Below are positions 22,381 to 51,024 of a stretch of 64,000 nucleotides of DNA, piece by piece. The stretch comes from Chloroflexota bacterium (GTDB lineage Bacteria; Chloroflexota; Limnocylindria; Limnocylindrales; CSP1-4), in the NCBI GenBank assembly GCA_046045415.1, contig JBJOLT010000015.1, positions 5,988 through 69,987 of the forward strand. The letters run 5' to 3'. Position 1 is the stretch's first letter, and every line of letters begins with the position of its first letter. The notes beneath the pieces are model-generated. The model did no database searches and had not been told where the DNA came from. It was given only the letters and a program-made list of their open reading frames with translations. Both the position numbers and the translations under genes were made by a program.

Positions 22381-22440
22381 CCGCTGATGCTATCGGCTCG
22401 GCCGCCGCCACCGTGCGGGGGCGTGCTACCGTGCGCGCCG

Positions 22441-28382: not shown

Positions 28383-29497
28383 CGGACGCCACCGGCCTCG
28401 AGCGCCGTGACGATCGCCTCGGCCGCTCCGGCCGGCGCGAGGGCGACGGTCGCGGCCCGCTCCCGTGCCGCGGCCGGGGCCGACGACGGCGGTGCGAGGC
28501 GATCGAGCGCCGCGACGGCGAGCGCCGCATCGCGGCCGACGAGGACCGTCAGCCCGCGCGGATCGGCAGCCGCCTCGACCCACTCGGTCGTCCCGCGGAG
28601 CACGAGGCACGGCACCGCGAGCCAGGCGGCCTCGCGCTGGACGCCGCCGGAATCCGTGAGGACGGCGGCGGCGTGGAGCTGCAGGGCGAGCGAGGTCCGG
28701 TAGCCCTGCGGCTCGAGGATCGCGACGCTCGCGGGGAGCTCGATCCCGGCGGCGTCGAGCGCCGCCCGGGTCCCCGGGTGGAGCGCGAGGACGACGGGCC
28801 GCTCCGGGGTGGCGACGGCGGCGAGGAGCGCGCTCCAGCCGCGGAGCGCCGCCTCGTCGCGGTTCTCGGCGCGGTGGACCGTCGCGAAGCAGTAGCCGCC
28901 CGGCCGGAGCGGGATCCCGAGGCGCTCCCCGATCGCGGCGACGGGCGCCGGGTCGCGGATCGCCGCGAGCGTCCGTGCCGCGAGATCCTGCATCAGGTCG
29001 CCGACGAGCGTGACGCCCTCCCCGATCCGTTCGGCCTCGAGGTTCGCGACGGCCGCCGGGGTCGGGGCGAAGCGCCAGCGGGCGAGGTGATCGGCGACGA
29101 TCCGGTTCCGCTCCTCCGGCATCGCCCGGTCGAAGCTCCGGAGCCCCGCCTCGACGTGCGCGAGCGGGATCCCCGCCCGGGTCGCGGCGAGCGCCCCGGC
29201 GAGCGTCGAGTTCGTGTCGCCGTAGACGAGGACCGCGTCCGGGCGCCACTCGGCGAGGAGCGGGTCGAGCGCGTCGAGCATCCGGGCGACCTGCTCGCCG
29301 GCCGTCCCGCCGCCGATCCCGAGGGAGCGGTCGGGCTTCGGGAGGCCGAGCTCGGCGAAGAAGGCGCCGGCCATCGCCTCGTCGTAGTGCTGGCCGGTGT
29401 CGACGAAGCGCTCGTCATGGCGTGCGCGGAGGACCGGGCCGAGCGCCGCCGCCTTGATCAACTGGGGGCGCGTCCCGAGGACGCTGACGATCCGCAC
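28379..29497 (-). CDS. UDP-N-acetylglucosamine (or UDP-GlcNAc3NAcA) 2-epimerase, WecB/WbpI-like
   Basis: 372 aa with VLGTRPQLIKAA, YGDTNSTLAGALAA, HVEAGLRS and TDSGGVQREA. Confidence 0.9.
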   Translation of the reverse strand: MRIVSVLGTRPQLIKAAALGPVLRARHDERFVDTGQHYDEAMAGAFFAELGLPKPDRSLGIGGGTAGEQVARMLDALDPLLAEWRPDAVLVYGDTNSTLAGALAATRAGIPLAHVEAGLRSFDRAMPEERNRIVADHLARWRFAPTPAAVANLEAERIGEGVTLVGDLMQDLAARTLAAIRDPAPVAAIGERLGIPLRPGGYCFATVHRAENRDEAALRGWSALLAAVATPERPVVLALHPGTRAALDAAGIELPASVAILEPQGYRTSLALQLHAAAVLTDSGGVQREAAWLAVPCLVLRGTTEWVEAAADPRGLTVLVGRDAALAVAALDRLAPPSSAPAAARERAATVALAPAGAAEAIVTALEAGGVR

Positions 29498-29525
29498 GCG
29501 GAGAGCCTACCCGCCGCCGGGCGGG

Positions 29526-30956
29526 TCAGCGGCGCGCGGCGGGACGGCGGACGGCGGACGGGACCCCGACGCCGTGGTAGGCGACCCCGCGCGGGAGGGC
29601 GAGCGACCGAAGGCTGTTCCGGCCGTCGTAGAGGACCTGCAGGTGCGGGAAGCAGCCGAAGTCGAGCGTCGCGAAGCGGGGATCCGCGGTCTGGGTGACG
29701 ATCGCGAGCGCGTCGCTCCGCTCGCCCCAGCGGTACGGGGCGGCGCCGAGGGCGGCCGTCTCCGCCTCGTCGAGGAGCGGGTCGTAGGCGGCGACGCGGG
29801 CGCCGTGGAAGGTGAGGCGCTCGATCAGCGGGACCGCCCGGCTGTAGGCGAGCTCCTTCACCCCGTGGCGGTAGGTGAGCCCGAGGACGAGGATCGTCGT
29901 CCCGTCGAGCCCGCCGAGCGCCCGCTGGAGCGCCCTGACCGCGACGCCGACCTGCCCGTCGTTCGTCTTCCGCGACGTCGCGACGAGCTCCATCTCCGGG
30001 GCGCGACTGAGGAGGAAGTGCGGATAGACCGGGATGCAGTGGCCCCCGACGCCGATCCCGGGCTGGTGGATGTGCGAGTAGGGCTGGCTGTTCGCCGCGT
30101 CGATCACCTCCTGGATGTCGACGCCGACCCGGTCGGCATAGCGCGCGAACTCGTTCGCGAGCGCGATGTTCACGTCGCGGTAGGTGGTGTCGGCGAGCTT
30201 GCTGAACTCGGCCGCCTCGGCCGACGACATCGCGACGATCTCCGCGTCGAGGACGGACGCGTAGAAGCGGGCGGCGAGGTCGGTCGCCTCGGGCGTCAGC
30301 CCCCCGACGAGCTTCGGATAGGCGGCGAGGTTCCGGAGCGCCGCCCCGCTGTAGAGCCGCTCCGGCGAGAAGGCGACGTGGAGGTCGCGCTCGATCGACG
30401 TGCCGCTCGCCGCCTCGAGCTTCGGCGCGAAGCGGCCGCGCGTGTCCCCGACCGGGAGCGTGGTCTCGAAGATGACGAGCGAGCCCGGATGGACCCCGGG
30501 CGCGATCGACGCGACCGCGGCGTCCATGTAGCGGTAGTCCGGCTGGTGGGCGTCGTCGAGCATGACCGGGACGATGAGGACGACGACGTCGGACTCGCGC
30601 GCCGCGGCGGCGGCATCGGTCGTCGCGCGGAGCCGGCCGGCGGCGTGGGCGCCCGCGACGAGCTCGGCGAGCCCCGGCTCGTCGTCGACGTGCGACTCGC
30701 CCCGATTGATCGAGTCGACGACCTCGCGTCGGACGTCGACGGCGACGACCTCCCAGCCGTGCGAGGCGTACTGGGCGCAGAGCGGGAGCCCCATCTTGCC
30801 GGCGCCGATCACCGCGACCCGGCCGGCGGTCCCCTCCTCGCCGGTCCACGGGGAGACCCGGCGCGTCTCGCCGTGCGGGCACGGCGCCGCCGGGAGCTCG
30901 ATCGAGCCGCCGAGGAGGCTCGGCCCCGTCGCGCTCGGGCGGGCGACGATCCTCAT
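29526..30956 (-). CDS. Nucleotide-sugar dehydrogenase (copy 2, WbpA-like UDP-GlcNAc 6-dehydrogenase candidate)
   Basis: 476 aa with VAVIGAGKMGLPLC and [18 protein letters not shown] at 30956 overlaps the upstream stop (ATGA). About 45 aa of unusual N-terminal lead precede the Rossmann fold. Confidence 0.8.
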   Translation of the reverse strand: MRIVARPSATGPSLLGGSIELPAAPCPHGETRRVSPWTGEEGTAGRVAVIGAGKMGLPLCAQYASHGWEVVAVDVRREVVDSINRGESHVDDEPGLAELVAGAHAAGRLRATTDAAAAARESDVVVLIVPVMLDDAHQPDYRYMDAAVASIAPGVHPGSLVIFETTLPVGDTRGRFAPKLEAASGTSIERDLHVAFSPERLYSGAALRNLAAYPKLVGGLTPEATDLAARFYASVLDAEIVAMSSAEAAEFSKLADTTYRDVNIALANEFARYADRVGVDIQEVIDAANSQPYSHIHQPGIGVGGHCIPVYPHFLLSRAPEMELVATSRKTNDGQVGVAVRALQRALGGLDGTTILVLGLTYRHGVKELAYSRAVPLIERLTFHGARVAAYDPLLDEAETAALGAAPYRWGERSDALAIVTQTADPRFATLDFGCFPHLQVLYDGRNSLRSLALPRGVAYHGVGVPSAVRRPAARR

Positions 30957-32005
30957 CGGGCCGGGAGCCGCGCGGCGAGGGCGGAGAGGTCGGACGGGCG
31001 CCCGGCGTCGGCGGATTCGAGGAGTGCGGTGGCGATCGCGACCGCCCAGAGGCCGTCCTCGACGTCGACTGCGGGGCGGCCGCCGCCCCGGACCGTCGCG
31101 AGGAAGGCGTCGATCTCCGCGACGAGCGGCTCCCGGTTCTCGACCGGGATCTCCGCGACGTCGCCGGCGAACGTCGTCGCGTAGCCCCCGAGCGTCTGCG
31201 GGTTCGCGACGTCGGCCTTCGTGAAGGTGAGGCGCTGCGTCAGGTAGTCGAGCTCGAACATCCCCTCCTCGCCGATGACGGTCAGCTGGCGTCGCTTCGC
31301 GGGCGTCAGCCAGTTGACGTCGATCATCCCGGTCGCGCCCGACGGGAAGTGGAGGAGGCCGAAGAGGAGGTCCTCGTGCGTCGCGTGGATCCGCTGCGCA
31401 TGCTCGGCGTAGGCGCGGGAGGGGCGCTCGCCGGCGATCCAGCAGAGCATGTCGGCATCGTGCGTGCCGAGGTCCACCGTCACCCCGACGTCGCGGATCC
31501 GCGCGGGGAACGGGCCGGCGCGCCGGCTCGCGATCGCGTAGACCGTCGAGAGGGCGCCCCCCCGGAGGAGCTCGCCGAGCCGGAGGACGGCGGGGTTGAA
31601 GCGCTCGACGTGGCCGACCTGGACCGGGACACCCGCGGCGCGGGAGGCCTCGACGATCCGGAGCCCCTCCTCCACCGACGCGGCGAGCGGCTTCTCGACG
31701 AGGAGCGCGACGCCCCGCTCGATCGCGGCGAGCGCGAGCGGGAGGTGGGCGGTCGTCGGCGCCGCGACGACGACCGCGTCGAGCTCCGCCTCGGCGATCA
31801 TCGCGAGCGGCTCGGAGAAGCCCTGTGCGCCCGATCGCGCCACCGCCTCCTCGACCGCGGCGGCCGCGGGGTCCGCGACCGCGACGAGCCGGCAGCCGGG
31901 CTGCGCGGCGAGGACGCGGAGATGGTTCCGTCCCATCGAGCCGAGTCCCGCGAGGCCGACGCGGACCTCGCGCTCGCCGACCGGCGTCCAGCGCGCGGGG
32001 CTCAT
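30953..32005 (-). CDS. Gfo/Idh/MocA-family oxidoreductase (WbpB-like)
   Basis: 350 aa with VGLAGLGSMGRNHL and EKPLA. ATG at 32005. Confidence 0.85.
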   Translation of the reverse strand: MSPARWTPVGEREVRVGLAGLGSMGRNHLRVLAAQPGCRLVAVADPAAAAVEEAVARSGAQGFSEPLAMIAEAELDAVVVAAPTTAHLPLALAAIERGVALLVEKPLAASVEEGLRIVEASRAAGVPVQVGHVERFNPAVLRLGELLRGGALSTVYAIASRRAGPFPARIRDVGVTVDLGTHDADMLCWIAGERPSRAYAEHAQRIHATHEDLLFGLLHFPSGATGMIDVNWLTPAKRRQLTVIGEEGMFELDYLTQRLTFTKADVANPQTLGGYATTFAGDVAEIPVENREPLVAEIDAFLATVRGGGRPAVDVEDGLWAVAIATALLESADAGRPSDLSALAARLPAR

Positions 32006-32015
32006 CGGGCGGGGC

Positions 32016-33116
32016 TCATCGGGGGGCGGCGTCCCCGTGCCGCGCGACGGCGGCCCGGACGGCGCCGATCACCGTCGCCTGCTCGTCGGCGGTCAGGTTG
32101 GGGTGCATCGGGAGGGCGATCGTCCGCGCCGCCGCGGCGTCGGTCACCGGGAGGTCGGCGTGGAGGCCGCGCTCCATCACGTACTCCTGCCGGTGGACCG
32201 GGAGCGGGTAGTAGACGTCGGCGCCGACCCCGTTCTCCCGGAGATCGGCGAGGATCGCGTCGCGCGCGCCGCCGACCTCGACGGTGTACTGGTGATAGAC
32301 GTGCGTCCGTCCCTCGGGCGTGACCGGGAGCCGGACCGGGAGATCGGCGAACGCCTCGTCGTACCGACCGGCGATCGCCTGGCGGCGTGCGGTGTTCCGC
32401 TCGAGCTTGTCGAGCTGGACGAGCCCGATCGCCGCGTTCAGGTTCGTCATCCGGAAGTTGTAGCCGAGGATCTCGAACGCGTAGCGGGTCCGCATCCCCT
32501 GGTTGCGGTAGAGCCGGAGCCAGTCGGCGAGCCGGTCGTCGTTCGTCGTCACCATCCCGCCCTCGGCGGTCGTCATGTTCTTCGTCGCGTAGAAGCTGAA
32601 GGCGCCGTGGCCGAACGAGCCGGCGCGGCGGCCGCGGTAGGTCGCCCCGTGCGCCTGGCAGGCGTCCTCCACGACCGCGATCCCGTGGCGGTCGGCGATC
32701 GCGCAGATCATGTCCATGTCGGCGACGAGGCCGAAGAGATGGACCGGGACGATCGCGCGGGTCCGCGGCGTGATCGCCTTCTCGATCAGCTTCGCGTCGA
32801 TGACGTAGGTGTCCGGCTCGATGTCGACGAAGACCGGGGTGGCGCCGGTGAAGAGGATCGAGTTCGCCGTCGCCGCGAACGTGTGCGCGACGGTGATCGC
32901 CTCGTCGCCGGGGCCGAGCCCGAGGCCGGCGAAGATCGCCATCTCGGCGAGCGTCCCGTTGCCGAACGCGATCGCGTGGCGGACGCCGCACATCGCGGCG
33001 AACCGCTCCTCGAACTCCGCGACCTGCTTCCCCTGGGCGATCATCCCGCTCCGGAGGACCTCGGTCACCGCCTCGATCTCCTCGGGACCGATGTCCGGCT
33101 TCGCGATCGGGATCAT
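32016..33116 (-). CDS. DegT/DnrJ/EryC1/StrS-family PLP aminotransferase (WbpE-like)
   Basis: 366 aa starting MIPIAKPDIGPEEIEAV. Contains FSFYATKNMTTAEGG (PLP Lys) and YHQYTV. ATG at 33116 overlaps the acetyltransferase stop (ATGA). Confidence 0.9.
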   Translation of the reverse strand: MIPIAKPDIGPEEIEAVTEVLRSGMIAQGKQVAEFEERFAAMCGVRHAIAFGNGTLAEMAIFAGLGLGPGDEAITVAHTFAATANSILFTGATPVFVDIEPDTYVIDAKLIEKAITPRTRAIVPVHLFGLVADMDMICAIADRHGIAVVEDACQAHGATYRGRRAGSFGHGAFSFYATKNMTTAEGGMVTTNDDRLADWLRLYRNQGMRTRYAFEILGYNFRMTNLNAAIGLVQLDKLERNTARRQAIAGRYDEAFADLPVRLPVTPEGRTHVYHQYTVEVGGARDAILADLRENGVGADVYYPLPVHRQEYVMERGLHADLPVTDAAAARTIALPMHPNLTADEQATVIGAVRAAVARHGDAAPR

Positions 33117-33787
33117 GCGCTCGCTCCATCGGCTGGGGCGTCGGCCCGCTCGGCGAGCGCGTCGGCCCTGGGGTCGTACCGGTAGGCGCGCCCGCATCGG
33201 GCGCAGTGGAGACTCGGATCGTGAGCGTACAACTCGGGCTTCCCCGGCGCCGGGTTCCCGTGCTCGTCCTTCAGCCGGTCGCCGCACGCGCAGACCCAGC
33301 CGATCCGGCGGGCCGGGTTGCCGGCGACGAGCGCGTGGTCGGGGACGGTCCTCGTGACGACCGCCCCGGCCCCGACGGTCGCGAAGCGCCCGACGTCCAC
33401 CCCCGCGACGACGACGGCGCCCGCACCGATCGAGCAGCCGTAGCGGAGCGTGATCGGGCTGACGACCCAGTCGGCGGCGCGGGCGAGCTCGCCGGTCGCG
33501 GTGATCGCGCGGGGGAACCGGTCGTTCGTGAGGATCGCGTTCGGGCCGATGAAGACGCCGTCCTCGACCGTGACGCCGTGGTAGACGAGCGCGGCGTTCT
33601 GGATCTTCACCCGGTCGCCGATGACGACGTCCTCGTCGATGAACGCATCGCGGCCCACGATGCAGCCCGCGCCGATCGTCGCGCGGTTCCGCACCTGGGC
33701 GCGGTGCCAGACGCTCGATCCGGCGCCGATCGCGACGTCCGCCTCGATGTCGGCCGACGGGTGGACGCGCGCAGAGGGGTCGATCAC
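33113..33787 (-). CDS. Left-handed beta-helix (hexapeptide) N-acetyltransferase (WbpD-like) with a C-terminal Cys-rich tail
   Basis: 224 aa with hexapeptide repeats (IGAGSSV, IGAGCIV, IGDRVKI, IGAGAVV). The tail is WVCACGDRL...HCARCG. GTG at 33787. Confidence 0.85.
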   Translation of the reverse strand: MIDPSARVHPSADIEADVAIGAGSSVWHRAQVRNRATIGAGCIVGRDAFIDEDVVIGDRVKIQNAALVYHGVTVEDGVFIGPNAILTNDRFPRAITATGELARAADWVVSPITLRYGCSIGAGAVVVAGVDVGRFATVGAGAVVTRTVPDHALVAGNPARRIGWVCACGDRLKDEHGNPAPGKPELYAHDPSLHCARCGRAYRYDPRADALAERADAPADGASA

Positions 33788-33863
33788 GGGTGGGAAGGGC
33801 TCCTTCGACGGCGCGCGACGGGGGCTCGGCGAGCGCGGCGCGAGCGCGACCGAGGCGTGGCGG

Positions 33864-33869
33864 AGTATA
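33864..33869 (-). promoter_or_regulatory. Candidate -10 box (TATACT) for the minus-strand wbp/glycosyltransferase operon
   Basis: This is the only AT-rich hexamer in the 178-nt spacer upstream of the acetyltransferase gene. It fits TAnnnT. No convincing -35. Confidence 0.3.
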
Positions 33870-33965
33870 CCGGAGCGGCCCTTCGGGACCCGGCGGGCGA
33901 CGGGCCGATCCCGTCGGTCCGACGCGCTCGGGCAGGTGGGCGCGGGCCGGTCGCCCTCCCCGGCC

Positions 33966-34796
33966 TCATCGCCGGCGGACCGCCGCCGCGACGGCCGCAC
34001 CCTGGCGGAGGAGCGCGCGGACGAGGCGCTCGACGAGCCGGCCCGCTCCGGTCGCACGGAGCTCGTCGCGGCGGAGGGCGAGGACGAGGACGAGCGCCTC
34101 CCAGATGATCCGGCGCGACATCTTCGAGCGGCCCACCCGACGGTCGCGGAAGGTGATCGGGACCTCCCGGATCCGTGCGCGGCCCCGCGCGGCCCGGTAG
34201 GTCATCTCGATCTGGAAGACGTAGCCGCCGGCATGGATCCCGCCGAGGTCGATCGCCGCGAGCGTCGCGGCGCGCCACGCCTTGAAGCCGCCGGTGAGGT
34301 CGCCCGGGCCGAGCCGGAGGACGAGCTTGGCGAAGAGGCTCCCGCCGCGGGAGACGATCCGACGACCGATCCCCCAGTCCTCGACCCGCCCGCCGCGGCA
34401 GTACCGAGAGCCGATGACGAGGTCGGCCTCGCCGCGCTCGAGCGGCCCGAGGAGCGCCGGCAGCGCGTCAGGATCGTGGGACCAGTCGGCATCCATCTGG
34501 ACGACGGTCCCGGCACCGCCGGCGAGGGCGACCCCGAAGCCGTCGACGTAGGCGCGCCCGAGTCCCTCCTTCCCGGCTCGATGGCGGACCCTGATCCGCG
34601 GGTCGGCGGCGGCGAGCTCGTCGGCGAGCCGGCCGGTCCCGTCCGGCGAGGCGTCGTCGACGACGAGGAGCGTCGCCTCGGGGAGCGCCTCGAGGATGGC
34701 GCGCGCGATCGGGGCGAGGTTCTCCGCCTCGTCGTACGTCGGGAGGACCACCCACGTCCCGGCGGGACGGGGCTCCGCGGTCGTTCGGCGCGCCAC
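33966..34796 (-). CDS. Polyprenol-phosphate mannose/glycose synthase (GT2, Ppm1/DPM1-like)
   Basis: 276 aa with VVLPTYDEAENL, VVDDASPDGT, VQMDADWSHDP and GGFKAW. Confidence 0.85.
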   Translation of the reverse strand: MARRTTAEPRPAGTWVVLPTYDEAENLAPIARAILEALPEATLLVVDDASPDGTGRLADELAAADPRIRVRHRAGKEGLGRAYVDGFGVALAGGAGTVVQMDADWSHDPDALPALLGPLERGEADLVIGSRYCRGGRVEDWGIGRRIVSRGGSLFAKLVLRLGPGDLTGGFKAWRAATLAAIDLGGIHAGGYVFQIEMTYRAARGRARIREVPITFRDRRVGRSKMSRRIIWEALVLVLALRRDELRATGAGRLVERLVRALLRQGAAVAAAVRRR

Positions 34797-34880: not shown

Positions 34881-36668
34881 TCAGCGGAGCGGGATCGAGA
34901 GCTGCGCCACGCCGCGGAGCCCGAGGAGGTCGGTCCCGCTCACGGCGATCGAGAGGCGACCGGCCGTCCCGCCCCGGAGGACGGGGATCCGGGCGACCCA
35001 GCGGTCGCCCTCGAGGACCATCCGGACGCTCCGCGCCGCGAGGCCGGGCTGCATGACGCGGGCGACCGGCGGCGCGGCGACCGGCTCGGCCGCGGCCGCG
35101 GTGAGGACGAGGATCCCGCCCCGGACGGCGATCGAGCGGCCGGTCGCGAGGGCGAACGGCCCGACCCCGATCGGCACCCCGATCCGGGTCGCGAGCCCGC
35201 CCGACGCCGCGACGACGCTCGCCCGGTACGTGCCCGGCGCGACGGGGCGGCCGTCCGCCCCGATCCCGTCCCAGGGGACGGCGTGGAACCCGGCCCCCCG
35301 CGGCGCTCGCGGGGCGACGGTCGCGACGGTCCGGCCGGCCGCGTCGAGGATCGCGACCGAGACGGTGGCGGCCGCCGCGAGCGTGAACGAGACCTCGGTC
35401 GCGCCGGGGGCGGTCCCGTTCGGGTCCGCCGGCCAGATCGCGGGGAGGCTCGTGGCGACCCCCGCGAGCGCCGTGTGGACGGCGATCCGCTTCTGGAGCG
35501 GCGGCGCCACGTTCCCGGCCGCGTCGCGGGCGGAGACGGTCGCGACGTACCGTCCGTCGGGGACGACCGCGCCCGCGTCGTCGCGCCCGTCCCACGTGAC
35601 GGTCGTCCGTCCCGGAGCGACGGGGAGCGACCAGGCGCGGACCGGGCCGCCTCCCTCCGCGGCGATCGCGACCTCGAGCAGGCCGCCCTCGCCGAGGGCG
35701 AGCGGGAGTGCGATCGACTCGCCGACGCCGTCGCCGTTCGGCGAGAAGGTGACGGGGGCGAGGGCGTTCCCGACCGCGACGAGCGTCGGCGGGGCGACGT
35801 CGGGGGGCGGGGCGACGACCGGGGCGCCGAGCGCCGGATCGAACGGCGCGAGCGGGTCGGACGAGGTCGCGCCGCGGACGGCGTCGGTCGTGAGCGACGG
35901 GTCGCCGAGGAACGAGCGGTAGAAGCCGGTCGTCGGCGTCTCCGGATCGAGCTGGCCGAGCCGGCCGGGCGTCCGGACGCTCTGGAAGGGGATGAGGTTC
36001 CAGTTCGCCCCCGGCGCGACCCGCCAGAGCGAGTCGAGCGTCTGGCTCGTCGCGAAGAGCGCGTTCATGTAGTAGACGGAGCCGCGGTGCGCGTCCGCGA
36101 TGACGGCGCCCGCGCCCGCCGCGCTCCAGCCGGCCGCCATGTTGTCGACGCGCTGCTGCGCGACGTCGATCGTCGGCTCGCCCCGGCCCGGCTCGGAGTT
36201 CCCCGAGGCGTAGCAGAGGTGGTGGAGGAGGACGAGGGCACCCGGCGCCAGCCTCACCTCGGCGGCGAGATACGCCTCGCCCCAGTAGCGGGTCGTGGAG
36301 TCGCCGCTCCCCGGATACGGGTTGAGGCCGAGGCCGTCCTGGGTCGCCGGGAGGAGCGTGGTCGAGTACGGGCTCGGGAACCCGTTCCCGTGGCCGAGGT
36401 AGACGACGACGTTCGCGCCCTGGAGCGCCGGCTTCGCGAGCTCCCACGTCGCGTTCGGGGAGTAGAGGGTCGTGACGTCGCTCGTCCACCGGCGGGCCTC
36501 CGCGGCGATCGCCTCCGCCTCGCTCCGATACGAGGAGGTCATCGAGCCGGCGGGGCCGACGATGACGACGACCTTCGGCGGGGTCGCGGCGGCGACCGGC
36601 GGGGCGGCGAGCCCGAGGGAGCCGGCGGCGGCGAGTGCCGCGAGGATGACGGCGACGAGTCGGTTCAC
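34881..36668 (-). CDS. Secreted protein: N-terminal domain with clan-CD-like His/Cys motifs plus two FlgD-Ig-like domains
   Basis: 595 aa with signal peptide VNRLVAVILAALAAAGSLGLAAPPVAAA. It contains ANVVVYLGHGNG and ALVLLHHLCYASGN, then FSPNGDG..VTWDGRDDAGAVVPDGRYV..ARDAAGN and a second WDG..G..V..GTY module. Confidence 0.75.
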   Translation of the reverse strand: MNRLVAVILAALAAAGSLGLAAPPVAAATPPKVVVIVGPAGSMTSSYRSEAEAIAAEARRWTSDVTTLYSPNATWELAKPALQGANVVVYLGHGNGFPSPYSTTLLPATQDGLGLNPYPGSGDSTTRYWGEAYLAAEVRLAPGALVLLHHLCYASGNSEPGRGEPTIDVAQQRVDNMAAGWSAAGAGAVIADAHRGSVYYMNALFATSQTLDSLWRVAPGANWNLIPFQSVRTPGRLGQLDPETPTTGFYRSFLGDPSLTTDAVRGATSSDPLAPFDPALGAPVVAPPPDVAPPTLVAVGNALAPVTFSPNGDGVGESIALPLALGEGGLLEVAIAAEGGGPVRAWSLPVAPGRTTVTWDGRDDAGAVVPDGRYVATVSARDAAGNVAPPLQKRIAVHTALAGVATSLPAIWPADPNGTAPGATEVSFTLAAAATVSVAILDAAGRTVATVAPRAPRGAGFHAVPWDGIGADGRPVAPGTYRASVVAASGGLATRIGVPIGVGPFALATGRSIAVRGGILVLTAAAAEPVAAPPVARVMQPGLAARSVRMVLEGDRWVARIPVLRGGTAGRLSIAVSGTDLLGLRGVAQLSIPLR

Positions 36669-36812
36669 GCGATCGAGACCTCCGCTCTGCGAGGGAGGAC
36701 GATCGTGGGCGCGGCCCGGGGTGGTGCGCAGCCGTGCGAAGGTCCGCGGGTCGCTGGCCCCTTCGTCCGGCTGTGCCCGGTGCGCGGACGCCCACGGCGG
36801 GGCGGCCGCCCG

Positions 36813-37796
36813 CTACGGGACCGGGGTCGGGCTCGGCGCGGCGGGGTCGGGGGTGACGAACGGCTGCTCCGAGTCGGGGAGCGTCCCGTCGTCGTTCGTC
36901 ACCTCGGTCGGCTGCTCGCCGAGGTCCGGGAGGCCGCCCTCGTAGTCGGTGATGACGAGGACGTACTCGAGCCGGTCGAGGTCGGCGGTCGGCTGGAGGT
37001 AGGCGGTCTGGACGACCGCGTTCGCGTCGCGGATCACGTCGACGACCTGGCCGACGACGAGGCCCTTCGGATACGGGGAGCGGACCCCCGACTGGAGCTC
37101 GATCCCGGCGGTGACCACCTCGTCGCCGATGAGGATCTTCTCCGTCGAGTCGATGTTCCGCATGACGAGGACGCCGCCGAGCTGGCCGTCGATCTCCCCG
37201 GTCGCGGCGCTCGCCTGCAGCTGGCCGATCACCGTCGAGCTCGTGTCGTTGATGAGGACGACGTTCGCGGCATCGCGGCCGACCTGGACGACCCGGCCGG
37301 CGAGCGCGCCGCCCGCCGCGATGACGACGTCGCCGACGGCGATCCCCTGCGCGGTCCCGACGTCGATCGTGATCACCCGTCGGAAGTCGGACGCATCACG
37401 GCCGATGACGATCGCGGTGACGGTCGCGAACTGGAGTCCGTTCCGGAGCTGGAGGAGCCCGGTGAGGAGCTCGTTCTCCCGCGCGAGCTCGACCGCCCGG
37501 GCGTTCTCGGCCCGGAGCCGCGCGTTCTCGTCGATGAGCCGGGCGTTGTCGCGCCGGAGCCCGTCGATCTCGGTGAGCGCCGCGGTGATGGACGCCCCCG
37601 TCCTCGCGACCGAGGTGAGCGCCGCCTGGAGCGGCCGGAAGGCGAAGCCGATCCCCTTCTGGACCTCGACGATCGGCTCGGCGCTCGAGAAGGCCATGAG
37701 GACGACCGTCGCGACGAGGAAGACGACGTACGTGGCGACCCGCCGCCGCGCGGCGCGCGCGGCGAGGGCGGCGGCGGAGGGACCGACCCCGGCCAT
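36813..37796 (-). CDS. mreC: Rod shape-determining protein MreC
   Basis: 327 aa with an N-terminal TM segment, a coiled coil (LRRDNARLIDENARLRAENAR) and beta-barrel domains (GIAVGDVV, GRVVQV). Coordinates are taken from the ORF track. Confidence 0.9.
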   Translation of the reverse strand: MAGVGPSAAALAARAARRRVATYVVFLVATVVLMAFSSAEPIVEVQKGIGFAFRPLQAALTSVARTGASITAALTEIDGLRRDNARLIDENARLRAENARAVELARENELLTGLLQLRNGLQFATVTAIVIGRDASDFRRVITIDVGTAQGIAVGDVVIAAGGALAGRVVQVGRDAANVVLINDTSSTVIGQLQASAATGEIDGQLGGVLVMRNIDSTEKILIGDEVVTAGIELQSGVRSPYPKGLVVGQVVDVIRDANAVVQTAYLQPTADLDRLEYVLVITDYEGGLPDLGEQPTEVTNDDGTLPDSEQPFVTPDPAAPSPTPVP

Positions 37797-37814: not shown

Positions 37815-38867
<1,053 letters not shown>

Positions 38868-38907
38868 CCGGGCGTGTGTCCCCACGGGCTGGTGATGAAG
38901 GCACCGC

Positions 38908-38913
38908 AGTATA
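38908..38913 (-). promoter_or_regulatory. Candidate -10 box (TATACT) upstream of mreB
   Basis: An AT-rich TAnnnT hexamer in the 86-nt radC-mreB spacer, about 40 nt upstream of the mreB ATG. Confidence 0.3.
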
Positions 38914-38953
38914 CCCGCCGCCCCCACGCGGACTCTCGGGAGCGATGCGGCGC

Positions 38954-39724
38954 TCACTCCGCCGCGCGTGCCGCCGACGGCCCCCGGTCGAAGGCGACGC
39001 CACGGTCGCGGAGGCTGACGAACGCGTCGTGCCCGACGACGAGGTGGTCGAGGACCTCGACGTCGAGGAGCCGGCCGGCCGCGAGCGCCTCGGCGGTGAG
39101 ATGGAGGTCGTCGGGGCTCGGGGTCGGGTCGCCCGACGGGTGGTTGTGGACGAGGATCACCCCGACGGCGTTCTCCCGGACCGCGTCGCGGAAGAGCTCC
39201 CCCACCCGGACGAGCGACGCGCTCACGTTCCCCTGGTAGACCGTGACGACCCGGAGGACGGCGTTCCGGCTGTTGAGGAGGACGACCCGGAGCTCCTCGC
39301 GCTCGAGCCGGCCCATCTGGAGGACGAGCCGGTCGGCGATGTCCCTCGGGGAGCGGACGATCCAGCGGCCGGTCGGCCAGTCGGCGAGGAGGCGGCGACC
39401 GAGCTCGAAGGCCGCGACGAGGCGCGCCGCCCGCGCGGCACCGACCCCCGGGAGCGAGTCGAGCTCCGACGGCGCGGCCCGCGCGAGACCGCTCAGCCCG
39501 TCATGGCGGGCGAGCGCGTCCTCGGCGATCGCGACGGCGCTCGCGCCCCGGACGCCGCTCCCCCAGAGGAGCGCGATCAGCTCGGCCGAGGTGAGGCCGG
39601 CGACCCCGCGCTGGACGAGGCGCTCACGGGGTCGCTCCGCGGCGGGGAGCTCCCTGATCGTGCGACCCGGCCGTGCCGCCCGCCCCCGGGGCGCCATGCC
39701 CGTCCCGTCTCCGCTCACGTCCAC
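38954..39724 (-). CDS. radC: RadC-family JAB/MPN-domain protein (UPF0758)
   Basis: Contains ERPRERL, ELIALLWGSG and HNHPSGDPTPSPDD. Alternative start at ATG 39697. The radC-mreB-mreC order matches that in B. subtilis. Confidence 0.85.
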   Translation of the reverse strand: MDVSGDGTGMAPRGRAARPGRTIRELPAAERPRERLVQRGVAGLTSAELIALLWGSGVRGASAVAIAEDALARHDGLSGLARAAPSELDSLPGVGAARAARLVAAFELGRRLLADWPTGRWIVRSPRDIADRLVLQMGRLEREELRVVLLNSRNAVLRVVTVYQGNVSASLVRVGELFRDAVRENAVGVILVHNHPSGDPTPSPDDLHLTAEALAAGRLLDVEVLDHLVVGHDAFVSLRDRGVAFDRGPSAARAAE

Positions 39725-39887
39725 CCCGACCTCCAGCGCTGGATCCCCGGACCCGGACGACGGAGCCCGCCGATTCCCCCGCCATCCGGATCCGGGGACG
39801 AGGCGAGACTAGGCGGCGCCGCTCACCGGTCGATCGACGGGGCCTCCACCCGGGCTCGCCGCCGGCGCCGTCGTCGGGCGAGGGCCG

Positions 39888-40946
39888 TCAGGTGCCGGCG
39901 AGGTTCGAGGCCGCCTGCGCGACGACGATGAGGGCGCCGTTGAACGCGGCGTGGAGGCCGATCGCGGCGTAGAGCGACCGGCGGCGGAGGAAGATCCAGC
40001 CGAGGGCGATCGCGACGGGGAGCCGTCCCGCGAAGCCGACGGCGGCGATCCCGACCGCCTCGCCGAACGTCGGGGCGCTGACGGCGATCACGTGGACGAG
40101 CGCGAAGAAGAGTGCCCCCCGGACGAGGGCCGCCCGCTCGCCGATCGCCCGCGCCCAGGCGGTCGTCGCGAAGCCGCGGAAGAAGATCTCCTCGCCGATC
40201 GGCGCGACGATCGCCGCCGTCACGAGGTTCAGCGCGAGGCCGGCCGCGTCGGTCGCCTCGGGGAGCGCGGGCTCCGGGGTCGATCCGACGACGCGGATGA
40301 GGAGGTCGAGGAGGAGTCCGGTGACGAGGACGACCGGCGCCGCGAGGAGCGCACCGGCGAGGAGCTCGCGGAGCGCCCGTCCGGGCGGCACGGCGAGGCC
40401 GATCTCCGACCACGAGAGCGCGCCGGACCCCACGACGAGGAGGCGGACGAGGACGAGGTAGACGACGCCGGTCGCGAGGACGGAGGCGAGCGCCGTCGTC
40501 GGCGAACGCGCCGGGACGCCGGCCGCACCGAGGAGCGCCACGAGGAGGGCGACGAGGAGGAGGGTGAGCGGGATCGTCGCCGCGAAGACGAGGAAGGGCG
40601 ACGGGCCGCGATACGGCGCCGCGCCGCCGTCGCTCCCGTGATCGTCGTCGCCCACCGCATCCGGCGACCCGCGGCGCCGTTCGAGCGCCTGGGAGCCGGC
40701 GCCGCCGAAGAGGCCGAGGCCGAGGAAGAGGAGGCCTGCGAGCAGCAGGCCGCTCGCCGCCGCCCGCCCGCCGGCGAGGAGCGAGACGAGGATCAGGCCG
40801 CCGCCGACGATCGTGAGGAGCCAGGCGACGAGGTAGAGGCCGGGCGCAGCACGGCGGTCGAGGCCGAACGTCGCGCTCCCCGGCGGCCCTGCCCGCGTCG
40901 GCTCGGGCGCGGCTCCGGGCGGCTCCTCGCGGGTCGGGTCGGTCAC
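39888..40946 (-). CDS. CPBP-family intramembrane glutamic endopeptidase (CAAX protease/Abi)
   Basis: Multi-TM, with motifs PIGEEIFFRG, FFALVH and HAAFN. GTG at 40946 overlaps the upstream stop (GTGA). The rest of ORF 39888..41189 is a spurious extension. Confidence 0.8.
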   Translation of the reverse strand: MTDPTREEPPGAAPEPTRAGPPGSATFGLDRRAAPGLYLVAWLLTIVGGGLILVSLLAGGRAAASGLLLAGLLFLGLGLFGGAGSQALERRRGSPDAVGDDDHGSDGGAAPYRGPSPFLVFAATIPLTLLLVALLVALLGAAGVPARSPTTALASVLATGVVYLVLVRLLVVGSGALSWSEIGLAVPPGRALRELLAGALLAAPVVLVTGLLLDLLIRVVGSTPEPALPEATDAAGLALNLVTAAIVAPIGEEIFFRGFATTAWARAIGERAALVRGALFFALVHVIAVSAPTFGEAVGIAAVGFAGRLPVAIALGWIFLRRRSLYAAIGLHAAFNGALIVVAQAASNLAGT

Positions 40947-41560
40947 CGCTCCGGCAGCGACCCGGTGGCTGCGCTCGCGCTCGGCTGCTTCGACGGCGCG
41001 GTCGCGGACGACGGAGCGCGACCGGCGGCGGCCGGGCCGCCCGCGGTCGCCTCCGACCCGGCCGGTGCCGACTCGCTCGCCCGCTCCCCGAGGTCGCGGC
41101 CGCACCAGGCGCAGAGGAGCCAGTCGGTCGCGACGAGGCGGCTGCACCCCGGGCACGGCCGGCTCAGCCGCACCCGGCAAGAGGGACACGCGATCCAGTC
41201 GTCGCGGACGCGCCGGCGGCAGCGCGGGCAGGACCCCGACGCGTCCACCTCGGCGAGGAGCGCCTCCTGCGCGAGCGTCCGCTCGTAGACGTCGTCCGTC
41301 CGCTCCTGGGGCCGGATCAGCCGGTAGAGGAGGACGGCGGCCGGGAAGAGGATGGGCGTGAAGACGACGATGACGGCCGCGGCGACGTACGGGAGGACGG
41401 CGTTGTCGGTCCGGAGCTGGAGGTCGCGGAAGGCCCAGTACGCGGACGCGAGCCAGAGGACGACCCAGTAGATCGCGAAGGCGCGGATCCCGAGCTGGAC
41501 GATCGGGCTCCCGAGGAAGCCGCCGATCGCGCCGGTGATCCCGTCGATGATGTCGGCCAT
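40943..41560 (-). CDS. Membrane protein with a C-terminal double zinc-ribbon (4x CxxC) and a Ser/Ala-rich tail
   Basis: 205 aa starting MADIIDGITGAIGGFLGSP, with 2 TM segments. The ribbon region is CPRCRRRV..CPSCRVRL..CPGCSRLV..CAWCGRDL. Confidence 0.7.
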   Translation of the reverse strand: MADIIDGITGAIGGFLGSPIVQLGIRAFAIYWVVLWLASAYWAFRDLQLRTDNAVLPYVAAAVIVVFTPILFPAAVLLYRLIRPQERTDDVYERTLAQEALLAEVDASGSCPRCRRRVRDDWIACPSCRVRLSRPCPGCSRLVATDWLLCAWCGRDLGERASESAPAGSEATAGGPAAAGRAPSSATAPSKQPSASAATGSLPER

Positions 41561-41618: not shown

Positions 41619-42518
41619 CTAGCAGGCGTCCGGCCCGGCTCGGCCGAGGAGCGAGGAGGTCGCGACGACCGCGAGGAGGGCGAGCGAGCCGCCCCACGCC
41701 CCGACGAAGAGAAGGGCGAGCGGGAGGGCGGCGGGACTCCCGATCGCGAGGGCGTCGCCGGCCGCCTCCCAGGCGAACCGCGCGAGCGCGAGCGACGGGA
41801 CGACGAGGAGGGCGGTGCGGGCGGCGTCGCGGAGTCCGCCGCGGACGAGCTCCCCGGGCCGTCGGATCGCCGCGGCGAGGGCGGCCGCGACCGCGCTCCC
41901 GGACCCCGTGCCGTCGACCGCGACCCGCCGGGCGGCGACGCCCCCGAGCCGGCTCGCGAGGAGCCACGCCGCTCCCACGAGGAGGAGGACGTCGGCGGCA
42001 CCCGCCGCGACCCTGAGCGGGAGGGCGACGGCGGGGTCCGATGGGCCGGTCAGCTCCCCGTACGCCACCGCGACGAGCCGGGGCACCGACCATGCGAGGG
42101 CGACGCCGAGCGGGATCGCGAGGAAGGCGCGGACGGCGAGGATCCGGAGCGGGTCGCCGCGCCGGGGAGTGGCGACGGGCACGACCCTCCCGTCGGCTCC
42201 GGCCGCGGTACGGAGGAGGGCGGCCTCGACGACCGCCGCGACGAGTCCCGCGCCGGCGAGCCAGCCGGCGACCCCGAGGACGGCGGACGCGATCGCGCCG
42301 AGCAGGGCGGGCGAGGGGCCGGACGGCGTGATCGCCGTCGGGCCGACGAAGGTGGCGACCCCGACGGACGACGGGAGGACGACGACCGGGAGGAGCGCGA
42401 CCGCGAGCCAGCCGTGGAGGAGCGCGACCGCGAGCGCGGCGGGCCAGAGGTCGCGTCGCGCGAGTGCCGCCCGGAGGCCGAGCGGCCCGCCGCTCATCCG
42501 GGCCGGGCCGTCCCGCAT
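41619..42518 (-). CDS. Hypothetical integral membrane protein (Ala/Leu-rich, about 7 TM)
   Basis: 299 aa with an ATG start 8 nt after the UPF0182 stop. The hydrophobic periodicity is consistent with a membrane protein. No family recognised. Confidence 0.6.
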   Translation of the reverse strand: MRDGPARMSGGPLGLRAALARRDLWPAALAVALLHGWLAVALLPVVVLPSSVGVATFVGPTAITPSGPSPALLGAIASAVLGVAGWLAGAGLVAAVVEAALLRTAAGADGRVVPVATPRRGDPLRILAVRAFLAIPLGVALAWSVPRLVAVAYGELTGPSDPAVALPLRVAAGAADVLLLVGAAWLLASRLGGVAARRVAVDGTGSGSAVAAALAAAIRRPGELVRGGLRDAARTALLVVPSLALARFAWEAAGDALAIGSPAALPLALLFVGAWGGSLALLAVVATSSLLGRAGPDAC

Positions 42519-42525
42519 CCGGACG

Positions 42526-45500
42526 TCACGGGGCGGGGCTGGCGCCGCCGGTCAGCTCGGCGAGCTGGCTGAGCGCCTCCTCGACGAGCGCGATCTCGCT
42601 CCCGTACGTGGCGAAGTCGCCGCGGCGGAGCGCCGCCTGCGCGAGCTCGAAGTGAAGGTTCGCGTACTCGATGAGCGCCGCGACGTCGCCGGTCGGCGGG
42701 GTCGGCGCGGGGCTCCCGCCCGGCGCCGGCGTCGGGGTCGGCGTCGCACCGCCCGAGCCGCCCGAGCCGCCCGAACCCCCGGAGCCGCCGGTCCCGTTCG
42801 AGGCGAGCTGCGCCTCGAGGGCCTCCTCGAGCGTGTCGCCCCAGACGACGGTCGTCGAGGTCGCGATGATCACCTTCTGGAGCTCGGGGAAGGCGGAACT
42901 CGTCGACTGCAGGTAGATCGGCTGGAGGTAGATGAGCGAGTCCTGGATCGGCATGACGATCAGGTTCCCGCGGATCACCCGGCTCCCGGCCTGGCTCCAG
43001 AGGCTGATCTGCGCGCTGATCGTCGGATCGGCGTCGATCCGCGCCTCGATCTGGTTCGGGCCGAGGACCGACGTGTTCTCCGGGAACTTGTGGACCCGGA
43101 CCTCGCCGTACGCCTCGCCGTCGTTCCGGGCCGCGATCCACGCGATCATGTTCGGCCGCCGCTGCGGGACCATCGGCTGGAGGAGGAGGAACTCGGTCGC
43201 GGTCTCCCCGGGCATCCGCATCTGGACGTAGTACGCCTCGGCGGGGAGCGTCTGGTCGCTCCCCGAGTCGACCGGGACGGTCCAGAGGTCCTCGCGGTTG
43301 TAGAAGGCGGCCGGGTCGCTCACGTGGTAGGTGGCGTAGAGGCGCGTCTGGACGTTGAAGAGCTCCTCCGGGTAGCGGACGTGCGAGCGGAGATCCTCGG
43401 GGAGCTCGTCGAGCGGCCGGAAGAGCGTCGGGAAGACGCCGCCGTAGGCCCGGACGAGCGGGTCGTCGGTGTCCGCGACGTAGAAGCTCATCGTCCCGTC
43501 GTACGCGTCCATGACGACCTTCACGGAGTTCCGGATGTAGTTGAACGGAAGGTCGCCGAGCCCGGTCCCGGGGAGTTCGAGCGGATCGAAGCGCTGGGCG
43601 TTCGGGAAGCGGTCGCTCACGGAGTAGGCGTCCTGGATCCAGACGAGCCGGCCGTCCTCGCGGATGACGAGGTACGGATCCTTGTCGTACCGGAGGAAGG
43701 GGGCGACGAGCCGGAGCCGCTCCTCGAGCGATCGGTGGAAGAGGATCTGGCTCTCCGAGGTGACCTGGTCGCTGATGAAGAGGTTCAGGTCGCGGAAGCG
43801 CGCGGCGAAGAGGAGCCGCGTCAGCGTGTTGTCGATGCGGACGCCGGTCGTGCCGGTCCAGCGGGTCTGCTGCCCGAGCCCGGCCGAGCCGCCCTCCGCG
43901 TCGCTCCCGACCGGGTAGTCGAACTCGCTCTGGCGGGCGCCGACGAGGACCCAGTCGCTCGGGCGCTCGCCGAAGTAGATCCGGAACTGGTCGATCGACG
44001 GCGCGCCGTCGACGGAGACGGGCGGGAGATCCTTGACGTAGAGGTTCGGCTGGCCGCTCTGCGTCGCCTCGTTCACCGGGACGAGGACCGCCCCGACGCC
44101 GTGCGTGAAGGTGATCTTCTGGTTGACCCACGAGTTCGCCTGCGGGTTCTTCTCGGGGGCGAGCTCGCGCGCCGAGAGCATCACCTGGCGCTGCTCGCCG
44201 TCGATCAGATAGCGGTCCGTGTCGACGTCGACGAACTCGTAGTACTGGCGGACCGTCTGGACCTGGTCGATGACGTCGCGGAGCGGCCGGTAGTCCCAGA
44301 CGCGGGCGCTCCGGAAGGTCTCGTCCTCGGCGGCGACGCTCGCCGCGGTGAGGGGCGCCTCGCCGCCGTAGTCGACCTGGCGCCAGTCGTCGAGGTCGTA
44401 GGCGAGCCGCGTCATCTCGATGTTGTTCCGGATGTACGGCTGCTCCTGGGCGAACTGGTTCGGGACGACGGTGAAGCGCTGGATGAACTCCGGGTAGAGC
44501 GTCCCGAGGACGACGGATGCGCCGAGCCAGATCGCGACCGTCATCGCGAGCGGCCAGACCATGTTCGTGAAGGCGCCGCCGACGAGGAACGCGGCGGCGA
44601 GCGCTGCGATCGCCGTGAGGACGTCGAGGCCGAGGAAGCGGGCGTTCGCGTCCGTGTAGCTGACGCCGGTGGCGACGCCCTGGGCGCCGTAGACGAGCTC
44701 GTACTTGTCGAGCTGGTACCCGGCGGCGACCGAGAGGAGGTAGAGGCCGGCGAGGACGCCGATGTGGACCCGGATCGGCGTCGTGGGGCGGAGGTCACCG
44801 CGGAGCCCCGCGAGGAGGTACCGGGCGCCGGCGACGATGAGCGCGCCGACGACGAGCCCGTTGAGGACCGACTGGACGAGCCGGAGGAACGGGAGGTCGA
44901 AGAGGAAGAACGAGATGTCCTGCCCGAAGACCGGGTCCGGGGCGGCCGCACCGGCGGCGTCGAACGGGACGCGGTTGAGGTAGAGCTGGATCGTCTCCCA
45001 CGACCCGGCGGCCGCGGCGCCGATCCCGAGCGCGAGGAGGAGCGAGAGGCCGACGATGAGCGGGATCCCGACCGGCCCGAGATCGGGCATCGAGGCGCCC
45101 GGCGTCACGTCGCGGGCCCCGCCCGACCGGGCCCGGTAGCGGTCGTCGCCCTGACCGGAGACGGTCCAGCCGCGCTCCCCGGCGGCGGCCGCCTCGTTCA
45201 TCCGGTCGATGAGGCGGGCGAGGGTCCCGCGGCCGTCCGGATCCGGCGGCGGGCCGAGCCGACCGGCGACCCAGAGGTTCCCGAGCAGGAAGAGGAGCGC
45301 GACGGCGAGGGCGGCGGCGAAGAGGATCAGCTGCGTCCCGACGCGGGTCCAGAAGACGTCGTCGTAGCCGACGCTCGTGAACCAGATCGCGTCGGTCCAG
45401 AGGTCGAGGACGAAGCCGCCGAGGAGGAAGACGAGGAAGGCGACCCCGGCGACGACGGTGAGGGAGACCTGGCGGACGGCGCCGATCCCGGCGCCGTCGT

Positions 45501-45717
45501 TCGGTCCGCCGGCGCCCCGGCGCGGCGGGCGCGGCCCGGACCCGCCGGGTCCGTCGGCGCGGGGCCGCCGGATCGGCTCCGGCTCGTCGTCCGCGTCCCG
45601 GTCGCCGGGGTCGCGCGGACCGCTCTCGCCGGGCGGCCGCTCGCCGCGGGCCATCGCGGCCTCGGCTTCCTGGCGGCGCCGCAGCTCTTCCATGAACTCG
45701 CCGAAGAGGTCCTTCAT
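42526..45717 (-). CDS. UPF0182-family large membrane protein (COG1615)
   Basis: 1063 aa. An N-terminal disordered segment is followed by multiple TM helices and then a large extracytoplasmic domain. Length and architecture match actinobacterial UPF0182. The C-terminal tail is Gly/Ser-rich (GGSGGSGGSGGSGG). Confidence 0.85.
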   Translation of the reverse strand: MKDLFGEFMEELRRRQEAEAAMARGERPPGESGPRDPGDRDADDEPEPIRRPRADGPGGSGPRPPRRGAGGPNDGAGIGAVRQVSLTVVAGVAFLVFLLGGFVLDLWTDAIWFTSVGYDDVFWTRVGTQLILFAAALAVALLFLLGNLWVAGRLGPPPDPDGRGTLARLIDRMNEAAAAGERGWTVSGQGDDRYRARSGGARDVTPGASMPDLGPVGIPLIVGLSLLLALGIGAAAAGSWETIQLYLNRVPFDAAGAAAPDPVFGQDISFFLFDLPFLRLVQSVLNGLVVGALIVAGARYLLAGLRGDLRPTTPIRVHIGVLAGLYLLSVAAGYQLDKYELVYGAQGVATGVSYTDANARFLGLDVLTAIAALAAAFLVGGAFTNMVWPLAMTVAIWLGASVVLGTLYPEFIQRFTVVPNQFAQEQPYIRNNIEMTRLAYDLDDWRQVDYGGEAPLTAASVAAEDETFRSARVWDYRPLRDVIDQVQTVRQYYEFVDVDTDRYLIDGEQRQVMLSARELAPEKNPQANSWVNQKITFTHGVGAVLVPVNEATQSGQPNLYVKDLPPVSVDGAPSIDQFRIYFGERPSDWVLVGARQSEFDYPVGSDAEGGSAGLGQQTRWTGTTGVRIDNTLTRLLFAARFRDLNLFISDQVTSESQILFHRSLEERLRLVAPFLRYDKDPYLVIREDGRLVWIQDAYSVSDRFPNAQRFDPLELPGTGLGDLPFNYIRNSVKVVMDAYDGTMSFYVADTDDPLVRAYGGVFPTLFRPLDELPEDLRSHVRYPEELFNVQTRLYATYHVSDPAAFYNREDLWTVPVDSGSDQTLPAEAYYVQMRMPGETATEFLLLQPMVPQRRPNMIAWIAARNDGEAYGEVRVHKFPENTSVLGPNQIEARIDADPTISAQISLWSQAGSRVIRGNLIVMPIQDSLIYLQPIYLQSTSSAFPELQKVIIATSTTVVWGDTLEEALEAQLASNGTGGSGGSGGSGGSGGATPTPTPAPGGSPAPTPPTGDVAALIEYANLHFELAQAALRRGDFATYGSEIALVEEALSQLAELTGGASPAP

Positions 45718-50996: not shown

Positions 50997-51024
50997 GCGC
51001 GGGACGACCCCGGAGGAGGAGCTG

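Follow-up and report, generated by a model that had tools for sequence, protein, structure and literature searches.

Within a 64,000-nucleotide stretch of Chloroflexota DNA (assembly GCA_046045415.1, contig JBJOLT010000015.1, positions 5,988 to 69,987; hereafter the window), the open reading frame (ORF) at 34881..36668 on the minus strand probably encodes a clan CD cysteine peptidase exported by the Sec route, with a candidate catalytic role for His93 and Cys152. That the protein is exported, adopts the clan CD fold, carries an invariant His/Cys pair and belongs to a new lineage-restricted family is predicted with confidence, and we infer from the model that it would be an active peptidase outside the membrane. 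Its place in the genome, with mreBC on one side and a glycan biosynthesis cluster on the other, is conserved.

Fold and candidate active site

The initial annotation, made from the sequence before any search, had read the N-terminal part of the protein as a clan CD fold with a candidate His-Cys dyad. The AlphaFold2 model of this domain has a predicted local distance difference test (pLDDT) score of 92.1 and a predicted template modelling (pTM) score of 0.92, and it does show a caspase-like fold, with elements in the order β1-α1-β2-α2-β3-His93-small beta section-α3-β4-Cys152-α4-β5-α5-β6. Up to the histidine these comprise β1 (residues 32-37), α1 (41-59), β2 (64-69), α2 (75-82) and β3 (87-91); then come the beta section (113-129), α3 (131-137) and β4 (144-149), and beyond the cysteine α4 (167-183), β5 (186-192) and α5 (198-216), followed by the β6 region. 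His93 lies two residues past strand 87-91 and Cys152 three residues past strand 144-149. The dyad residues thus come after core strands three and four, as in clan CD, where the topology described by McLuskey and Mottram places them at the C-terminal ends of β3 and β4 (PMC4357240). The same review defines the clan by an alpha/beta/alpha sandwich whose central sheet is the caspase β1-β6 with five flanking helices (PMC4357240), and the model is an alpha/beta/alpha sandwich on a caspase-like β1-β6 sheet, with His before Cys at the β3 and β4 ends and a His-Gly motif. We infer from this topology that His93 and Cys152 would be juxtaposed.

In a fold comparison, Gingipain R (RgpB, 4ief_B) scored highest at 13.2 (166 residues, 3.0 Å, 18% identity), followed by SAVED-CHAT (12.7), Gingipain K (Kgp; 12.0), the CHAT protein DdvA (11.5), Metacaspase-9 (11.3), Legumain (11.1), OaAEP1 and MALT1 (both 11.0), GPI8 (10.5), Caspase-1 (10.4) and Separase (10.2). 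The top Foldseek matches of the domain were weak but were likewise clan CD proteins (separase, CHAT, C11 and legumain).

The predicted catalytic histidine (codon 36390..36392) sits at the end of β3 in the motif VVVYLGHGNG, within ANVVVYLGHGNG (residues 85-96), and the predicted nucleophile (codon 36213..36215) at the end of β4 in the motif LVLLHHLCYASGN, within ALVLLHHLCYASGN (residues 144-157); both codons are on the minus strand, and both residues are preceded by hydrophobic strands, as seen in VVVYLGHGNG and ALVLLHHLC. The motifs G92-H93-G94-N95 and C152-Y153 are unchanged in 84/84 domain sequences taken from genomic loci of independent genomes, whose N-terminal domains share 50-70% identity with the query; T74, E131, E159, R173, D175 and R232 are equally constant in this set. 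The conserved charged residues of the domain are E131, E159, R173, D175, R232 and H150. His93 and Cys152 are likewise invariant in three protein alignments, one of 32 sequences, one of 50 and one of 75 cluster representatives (31-52% identity; mean column identity 21%), so that the two motifs hold in all orthologs and paralogs examined. Judged from these alignments, the conservation of the dyad motifs is far beyond chance. Cys152 is the sole cysteine of the 595-residue protein and the sole cysteine in 27 of 42 positionally linked orthologs.

Gene and protein architecture

The ORF begins with GTG and ends with TGA, as given by the ORF list and a translation check, and a Shine-Dalgarno sequence (GGAGG, 36679..36683, minus strand) can be read directly 10 nucleotides (nt) upstream of the start. 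Its GC content at the three codon positions, 0.74/0.60/0.97, is what genuine genes typically show in this window of 75% GC; coding frames were judged by a GC1>GC2 filter, as GC3 alone is noisy and antisense frames also have high GC3.

All features of the protein described below are encoded on the minus strand. The signal peptide that had been called from the sequence (residues 1-27; 36588..36668) has, on inspection, the features of the Sec/signal peptidase I type, with an N-terminus of M/V-NR, an 18-residue hydrophobic core and a PPVAAA/TPP cleavage site; in the model it forms a helix over residues 2-16 followed by a low-confidence segment. An equivalent hydrophobic leader is present in all homologs, ahead of a conserved PKVVIIVGP strand. 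The clan CD (caspase/gingipain-fold) catalytic domain (residues 30-268; 35865..36581) is followed by a proline-rich flexible linker, SSDPLAPFDPALGAPVVAPPPDVAPPT (residues 269-295; 35784..35864), with pLDDT <50 at residues 274-288. Next are a beta-sandwich domain of FlgD_ig type (residues 296-397; 35478..35783), which coincides with a Pfam stretch, is all-beta in the model and carries the motifs FSPNGDG...TWDGRDDAG...ARDAAGN, and a second domain of this type (residues 401-502; 35163..35468), with its best Pfam stretch at residues 423-490 and likewise modelled. A third beta-sandwich domain (residues 505-595; 34884..35156) is all-beta with pLDDT >90 and has no family assignment. Pfam PF13860 (FlgD_ig) matched the protein in two stretches with 74.8 bits against a gathering cut-off of 27, and a search of Protein Data Bank (PDB) sequences matched FlgD alone (residues 417-520, E=1.8e-5), in agreement with the two FlgD-type immunoglobulin-like (Ig-like) modules that the initial annotation had recognised. 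Pfam gave no match within residues 1-290, NCBIfam detected the FlgD-like part alone, and inspection of the C-terminal sequence revealed no transmembrane helix, anchor or sorting motif. In the full-length model (pLDDT 90.6, pTM 0.52) the linker is disordered over residues 274-288 and the three beta-sandwich domains follow it, and the pTM is as expected for a beads-on-a-string layout; in Foldseek this model resembles tandem beta-sandwich arrays of MG, adhesin and S-layer proteins.

Relation to C25 and other clan CD families

Sub-threshold Pfam matches among 50 relatives were to Peptidase_C25 (PF01364) in 21, to C50 in five and to CHAT in two. The best PF01364 E-value was 0.005 among these 50 and 8e-4 among 75 representatives, and the relatives that were inspected scored 12-14 bits (E 0.03-0.11) against a gathering score of 23 bits. 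The C25 matches cover the His-to-Cys region, beginning about 45 residues before the GHG, with some extending past the Cys. The target itself did not match PF01364 even at E-values up to 10 and falls outside the C25 family on this measure, and searches of PDB sequences by phmmer and by profile hmmsearch gave FlgD or chance matches only.

For profile comparison, the RgpB query sequence was identical to 4ief_B over 433 residues, with His211 in G-H-G and Cys244 in V-A-C. The catalytic histidine is printed as 'His221' in a review, yet it is described there as flanked by Gly210 and Gly212, which bind P1 (PMC4357240). Alignment by hhalign of the family profile with the single RgpB sequence placed VVVYLGHGN on LANYTGHGS at P=0.02, which is not significant. 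Against a C25 profile of 25 sequences (RgpB and 24 PF01364 proteins), GHGN was placed on the catalytic GHGS with a pairwise P of 0.003, a probability of 10% and 37 aligned columns; the aligned part is limited to β2-α2-β3-His and is in the correct register, with His93 on RgpB His211. A forced extension of the alignment (mact 0.05) put Cys152 on a non-catalytic RgpB cysteine with zero confidence and is uninformative. C25 enzymes have an N-terminal subdomain, a C-terminal caspase-like subdomain with a 10-stranded sheet and a large N-terminal prodomain (PMC4357240), a combination of N-terminal subdomain, 10-stranded sheet and large prodomain that the target does not show. We conclude that the family belongs to clan CD and lies nearest to C25, yet no criterion of sequence places it within C25; MEROPS would count it as a new family.

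Family size, range and clades

With residues 28-271 as the query, 851 proteins were matched (best E 1e-99), each labelled 'hypothetical' and each with a source name of Chloroflexota or Candidatus Limnocylindrales. An exhaustive profile search found at least 1,445 cluster representatives (50% identity) at E<=1e-3, with 658 at E<=1e-30 and lengths of 225-955 amino acids, and at least 586 loci were counted when GTDB species genomes were scanned; the 80 loci that were retained are all from Chloroflexota metagenome-assembled genomes (MAGs). The domain family is unrecognised by current Pfam or NCBIfam models and is seen only in Limnocylindria-type Chloroflexota. Literature searches on Limnocylindria and on clan CD in Chloroflexi yielded nothing on this family or on the envelope of the class.

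The family has two clades, one positionally conserved and including the target (linked copies), the other scattered and paralogous. In a neighbour-joining tree, the linked copies stand apart from a block that holds 24 of 27 unlinked copies. Four unlinked copies fall among the linked ones; three of these are on contigs that end within about 3 kb upstream, and the fourth (L020) keeps about 4.9 kb. Both kinds of copy can occur in one genome, as in the pairs L024/L030 and L052/L007. Pfam detected FlgD_ig in 30, CHU_C in 29, Big_13 in 15, CW_binding_2 (CWB2; best E 5e-59) in nine and SLH in one of the 42 linked orthologs, and none of these five domains in any of 25 unlinked paralogs. Seven of the nine CWB2-bearing orthologs directly abut mreC (L035, L040, L045, L054, L066, L071 and L074), and the CWB2 repeats of mreC-abutting orthologs carry DRYxTA motifs, with one to three per protein. 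The target and the L044 ortholog also abut mreC, yet they have FlgD-Ig domains instead of CWB2.

Many homologs (P0011, P0013, P0022, P0028, P0099, P0103 and others) end in unalignable Arg/Pro-rich tails, which are typical of frameshifts in high-GC long-read MAGs, so that annotated lengths and domain content are underestimated. Small separate FlgD_ig 'genes' downstream of the homolog at one related locus (L001) may be pieces of longer genes.

Genomic neighbourhood

The target is the next gene after mreB and mreC, as had been noted from the sequence. Immediately upstream on the same strand, across a 144-nt gap with no terminator-like site, lies mreC (36813..37796, minus strand; Pfam MreC 5.3e-33; TIGR00219 at 102 bits against a cut-off of 92.75), which is preceded by mreB (37815..38957, minus strand; Pfam MreB_Mbl 2.2e-143) and, upstream of it on the same strand, by genes for an Rce1-like CPBP protease and radC (38954-41189, minus strand). 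A sigma-70 promoter scan found 0 sites, with 0 expected at 75% GC, and is uninformative. In the longest mreB ORF, 40 additional N-terminal residues precede the Pfam match (first matched residue 41) and run into the radC stop codon; translation probably begins instead at an internal Met, residue 31 (MFDRLLGLFS...).

Next downstream, and opening the glycan cluster, is a gene that encodes a polyprenyl-phosphate-type family 2 glycosyltransferase (GT2; 33966..34796, minus strand; Pfam Glycos_transf_2 1.7e-25, with sub-threshold AglJ/PpgS-like NCBIfam matches). Contiguous genes at 28379-34057 (minus strand) encode a UDP-GlcNAc 2-epimerase, a UDP-sugar 6-dehydrogenase, a Gfo/Idh/MocA oxidoreductase, a DegT aminotransferase and a hexapeptide acetyltransferase, a five-gene set that we take to be a WbpI/A/B/E/D-like route to UDP-2,3-diacetamido-2,3-dideoxy-uronic acid. 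After this sugar set come four family 4 glycosyltransferases (21163-29249), a second UDP-sugar dehydrogenase in the C-terminal part of ORF 19865-22411, and an ABC-2 transporter (21556-23334, plus strand).

Across 83 related loci, the genes found upstream on the same strand are mreC (49), mreB (46), radC (43) and the Rce1-like gene (40), and those found downstream are the GT2 gene (40) and WbpD/E-like genes (19-23). The order Rce1-like CPBP protease, radC, mreB, mreC is kept in more than 40 Limnocylindria genomes. The distance from mreC to the gene is about 3.7 kb in most relatives, with the gene directly after mreC in about nine loci, and at L001, the sole locus with gene calls inspected, dTDP-sugar (rml) genes fill the stretch between mreC and the homolog. 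The paralogous clade lies in unrelated gene contexts.

The initial annotation had also drawn attention to missing elongation genes, and the 64 kb window indeed gave no Pfam match to MreD, Transpeptidase/PBP_dimer or FTSW_RODA_SPOVE among the ORFs scanned (at least about 109 amino acids); nor do mreD, pbp2 or rodA follow mreC at the inspected loci (the window and L001). The expectation that these genes usually follow mreC does not hold universally: in E. coli, mrdAB lies in a locus of its own, the B. subtilis arrangement is mreBCD-minCD, and the absence of pbp2 and rodA is thus unremarkable. The suggested tie to the elongation machinery stands as far as the position after mreC goes, and is weakened by the usual distance of about 3.7 kb and by the paralogs located elsewhere. 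The link is one of position only; of the two neighbours, it is the glycan cluster that accompanies the gene more constantly.

Proposed function and alternative explanations

In the reading that we favour, removal of the signal peptide would leave a 240-residue catalytic domain on a proline-rich linker and a stalk of three Ig-like domains. Judging from the fold, His93 in the loop after β3 would act as the general base and Cys152 in the loop after β4 as the nucleophile, with an active-site geometry like that of gingipain His211/Cys244. The enzyme would act on the outside of an envelope that is probably monoderm, where it would cleave proteins of the surface or the surroundings of the cell, and members of its clade would be held at the wall by Ig-like or CWB2/SLH modules. 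It would form part of the envelope and glycan neighbourhood and not be a component of the MreBC elongation complex.

The closest structural relatives appear to be the gingipains RgpB and Kgp of Porphyromonas gingivalis (MEROPS C25; PDB 1CVR, 4IEF, 4RBM), which, like the target, are secreted, have the G-H-G His motif in the same register and the Cys past the next core strand, and carry one or more Ig-like domains behind the catalytic domain (PMC4357240); the recurrent weak PF01364 matches in relatives of the target point the same way. Unlike gingipains, the target lacks the N-terminal subdomain, the caspase-like part starting five residues after the signal peptide, as well as the 229-residue prodomain and the C-terminal domain of the type IX secretion system (T9SS); its spacing from His to β4 is about 50 residues, compared with about 25 in RgpB, and its host is a member of the Chloroflexota rather than the Bacteroidota. 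CHAT, SAVED-CHAT and TPR-CHAT proteins and separase gave weak CHAT/C50 Pfam matches in a few relatives. These are cytoplasmic, signal-activated proteases of defence or cell-cycle systems, whereas the target is exported and fused to Ig-like domains, and its family to wall-binding modules. As a functional analogy, the closest is probably Cwp84 of Clostridioides difficile, a CWB2-anchored cysteine protease of papain fold (clan CA, C1A) that matures the S-layer precursor. Its layout, in which CWB2 repeats tether a secreted cysteine protease to the wall, recurs in nine of the 42 linked orthologs; Cwp84 is nonetheless structurally unrelated, and the target has Ig-like domains rather than CWB2.

Several observations weigh against an exported, surface-held clan CD peptidase. 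Similarity to characterised clan CD families is below significance, with an hhalign probability of only 10%, and the catalytic domain of the target has no Pfam match. Cys152 is preceded by Leu, where clan CD enzymes commonly have a small residue (Ala). Most clan CD enzymes carry a prodomain or inhibitory segment (PMC4357240), and none is recognisable in the target. No wall-binding module is recognised in the target itself, whose putative retention at the surface is suggested by its clade; the idea of a monoderm envelope comes from publications about the Chloroflexi at large (bioRxiv 10.1101/366732).

With its fold and dyad unchanged, the enzyme could instead work mainly as a transpeptidase or 'sortase', in the manner of PorU (a C25-like T9SS sortase), GPI8 or legumain-type ligases, removing a C-terminal sorting domain from secreted proteins and attaching them to the envelope glycan that the adjacent genes would make. 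These enzymes, too, act on secreted or surface proteins, and the conserved position beside a glycan biosynthesis cluster, the separate FlgD_ig genes after the homolog in L001 (with similar matches recurring at many loci) and the presence of CHU_C and FlgD_ig, types that serve as T9SS C-terminal signals in Bacteroidota, in 29-30 of the 42 linked orthologs would all suit such a role. We nevertheless consider it unlikely. The CHU_C and FlgD_ig domains sit inside the protease polypeptide, which makes them look like stalk domains and not cargo tags; by sequence the target lies outside the families of these enzymes, with a faint NCBIfam match to PorU (E=0.09) on its FlgD-Ig region only; no transfer chemistry, cleavable sorting signal, sorting-signal substrate or glycan-linked protein is evidenced in the lineage; clan CD enzymes hydrolyse by default; and Chloroflexota lack an outer membrane and T9SS (bioRxiv 10.1101/366732). 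Slightly less probable again is the specific conjecture that the positionally conserved clade is a monoderm counterpart of PorU/GPI8, trimming secreted Ig-domain proteins and coupling them covalently to the secondary wall or surface glycan made by the adjacent Wbp-like/glycosyltransferase cluster; if true, the position beside mreBC would reflect surface-layer assembly coordinated with lateral wall growth.

An accessory role in MreBC elongation, as a peptidoglycan endopeptidase or wall-synthesis regulator occupying the slot of mreD/pbp2/rodA, is very unlikely. The gene does lie directly downstream of mreC with no terminator-like site between them in a window where the scanned ORFs include no mreD, PBP2 or RodA, mreC is upstream in 49 of 83 related loci across the whole class, and seven of the nine orthologs that abut mreC bear CWB2 wall-binding repeats. 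However, about 3.7 kb intervenes in most linked loci, with sugar-nucleotide genes in L001, which makes the glycan cluster the constant neighbour; the 144-nt gap and the strong Shine-Dalgarno sequence of its own suggest at least independent translation; and gene order conserved within one class may be plain inheritance. CWB2 binds secondary wall polymers and not the elongasome, and we know of no clan CD enzyme that acts on peptidoglycan. It is more improbable still that the protein is a non-catalytic adhesin or structural protein, a pseudo-peptidase built on a caspase-like scaffold. Its three Ig-like domains do resemble adhesin and S-layer arrays, and pseudo-orthocaspases without the HC dyad are known within clan CD (PMC6426788). 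Pseudo-variants replace the dyad, whereas here the dyad and its flanking glycines are invariant in all the sequences examined, and it is difficult to see why a secreted protein would conserve a lone unpaired Cys unless that residue had a chemical function.

With a secreted clan CD peptidase as the preferred reading, a large family that every database labels 'hypothetical' gains a fold, a predicted catalytic mechanism and a candidate active site, in an abundant uncultured soil and freshwater lineage, the Limnocylindria-type Chloroflexota. The would-be new clan CD family combines a minimal caspase-like core and no prodomain with swappable Ig-like or wall-binding (CWB2, SLH, LysM, SH3) modules, and the order of Rce1-like gene, radC, mreB and mreC, then protease and glycan cluster, offers a landmark for studying how the surface is built. 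The find is one at the level of annotation: it proposes an additional family for clan CD, is no new kind of mechanism or system, and demonstrates no further component of the elongation machinery.

Other genes in the window

A heliorhodopsin gene (949-1770, minus strand; Pfam PF18761 E=1.7e-79, full length) adjoins a Na+/H+ exchanger gene (2-892). A UPF0182 membrane protein (42526-45717, minus strand; Pfam E=6.7e-258) is flanked by two unassigned membrane-like ORFs at 41619-42518 and 45800-46477. A cyclic-di-AMP receptor gene (PF06153; 50570-50899, minus strand) is divergent from that of a GAF-GGDEF diguanylate cyclase (50995-52047, plus strand), and a tandem TldD/PmbA metallopeptidase pair lies at 52789-55604 (plus strand), where the listed ORFs overlap and the second start is probably further downstream. 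The sole Rfam match in the window is one tRNA (14721-14794, minus strand, 66.5 bits). A SurA-N-like protein with three PPIC-type rotamase domains (18095-19819, minus strand), a folding factor for secreted proteins, is encoded beside MazG and Ham1, which we take to be nucleotide-cleansing genes.

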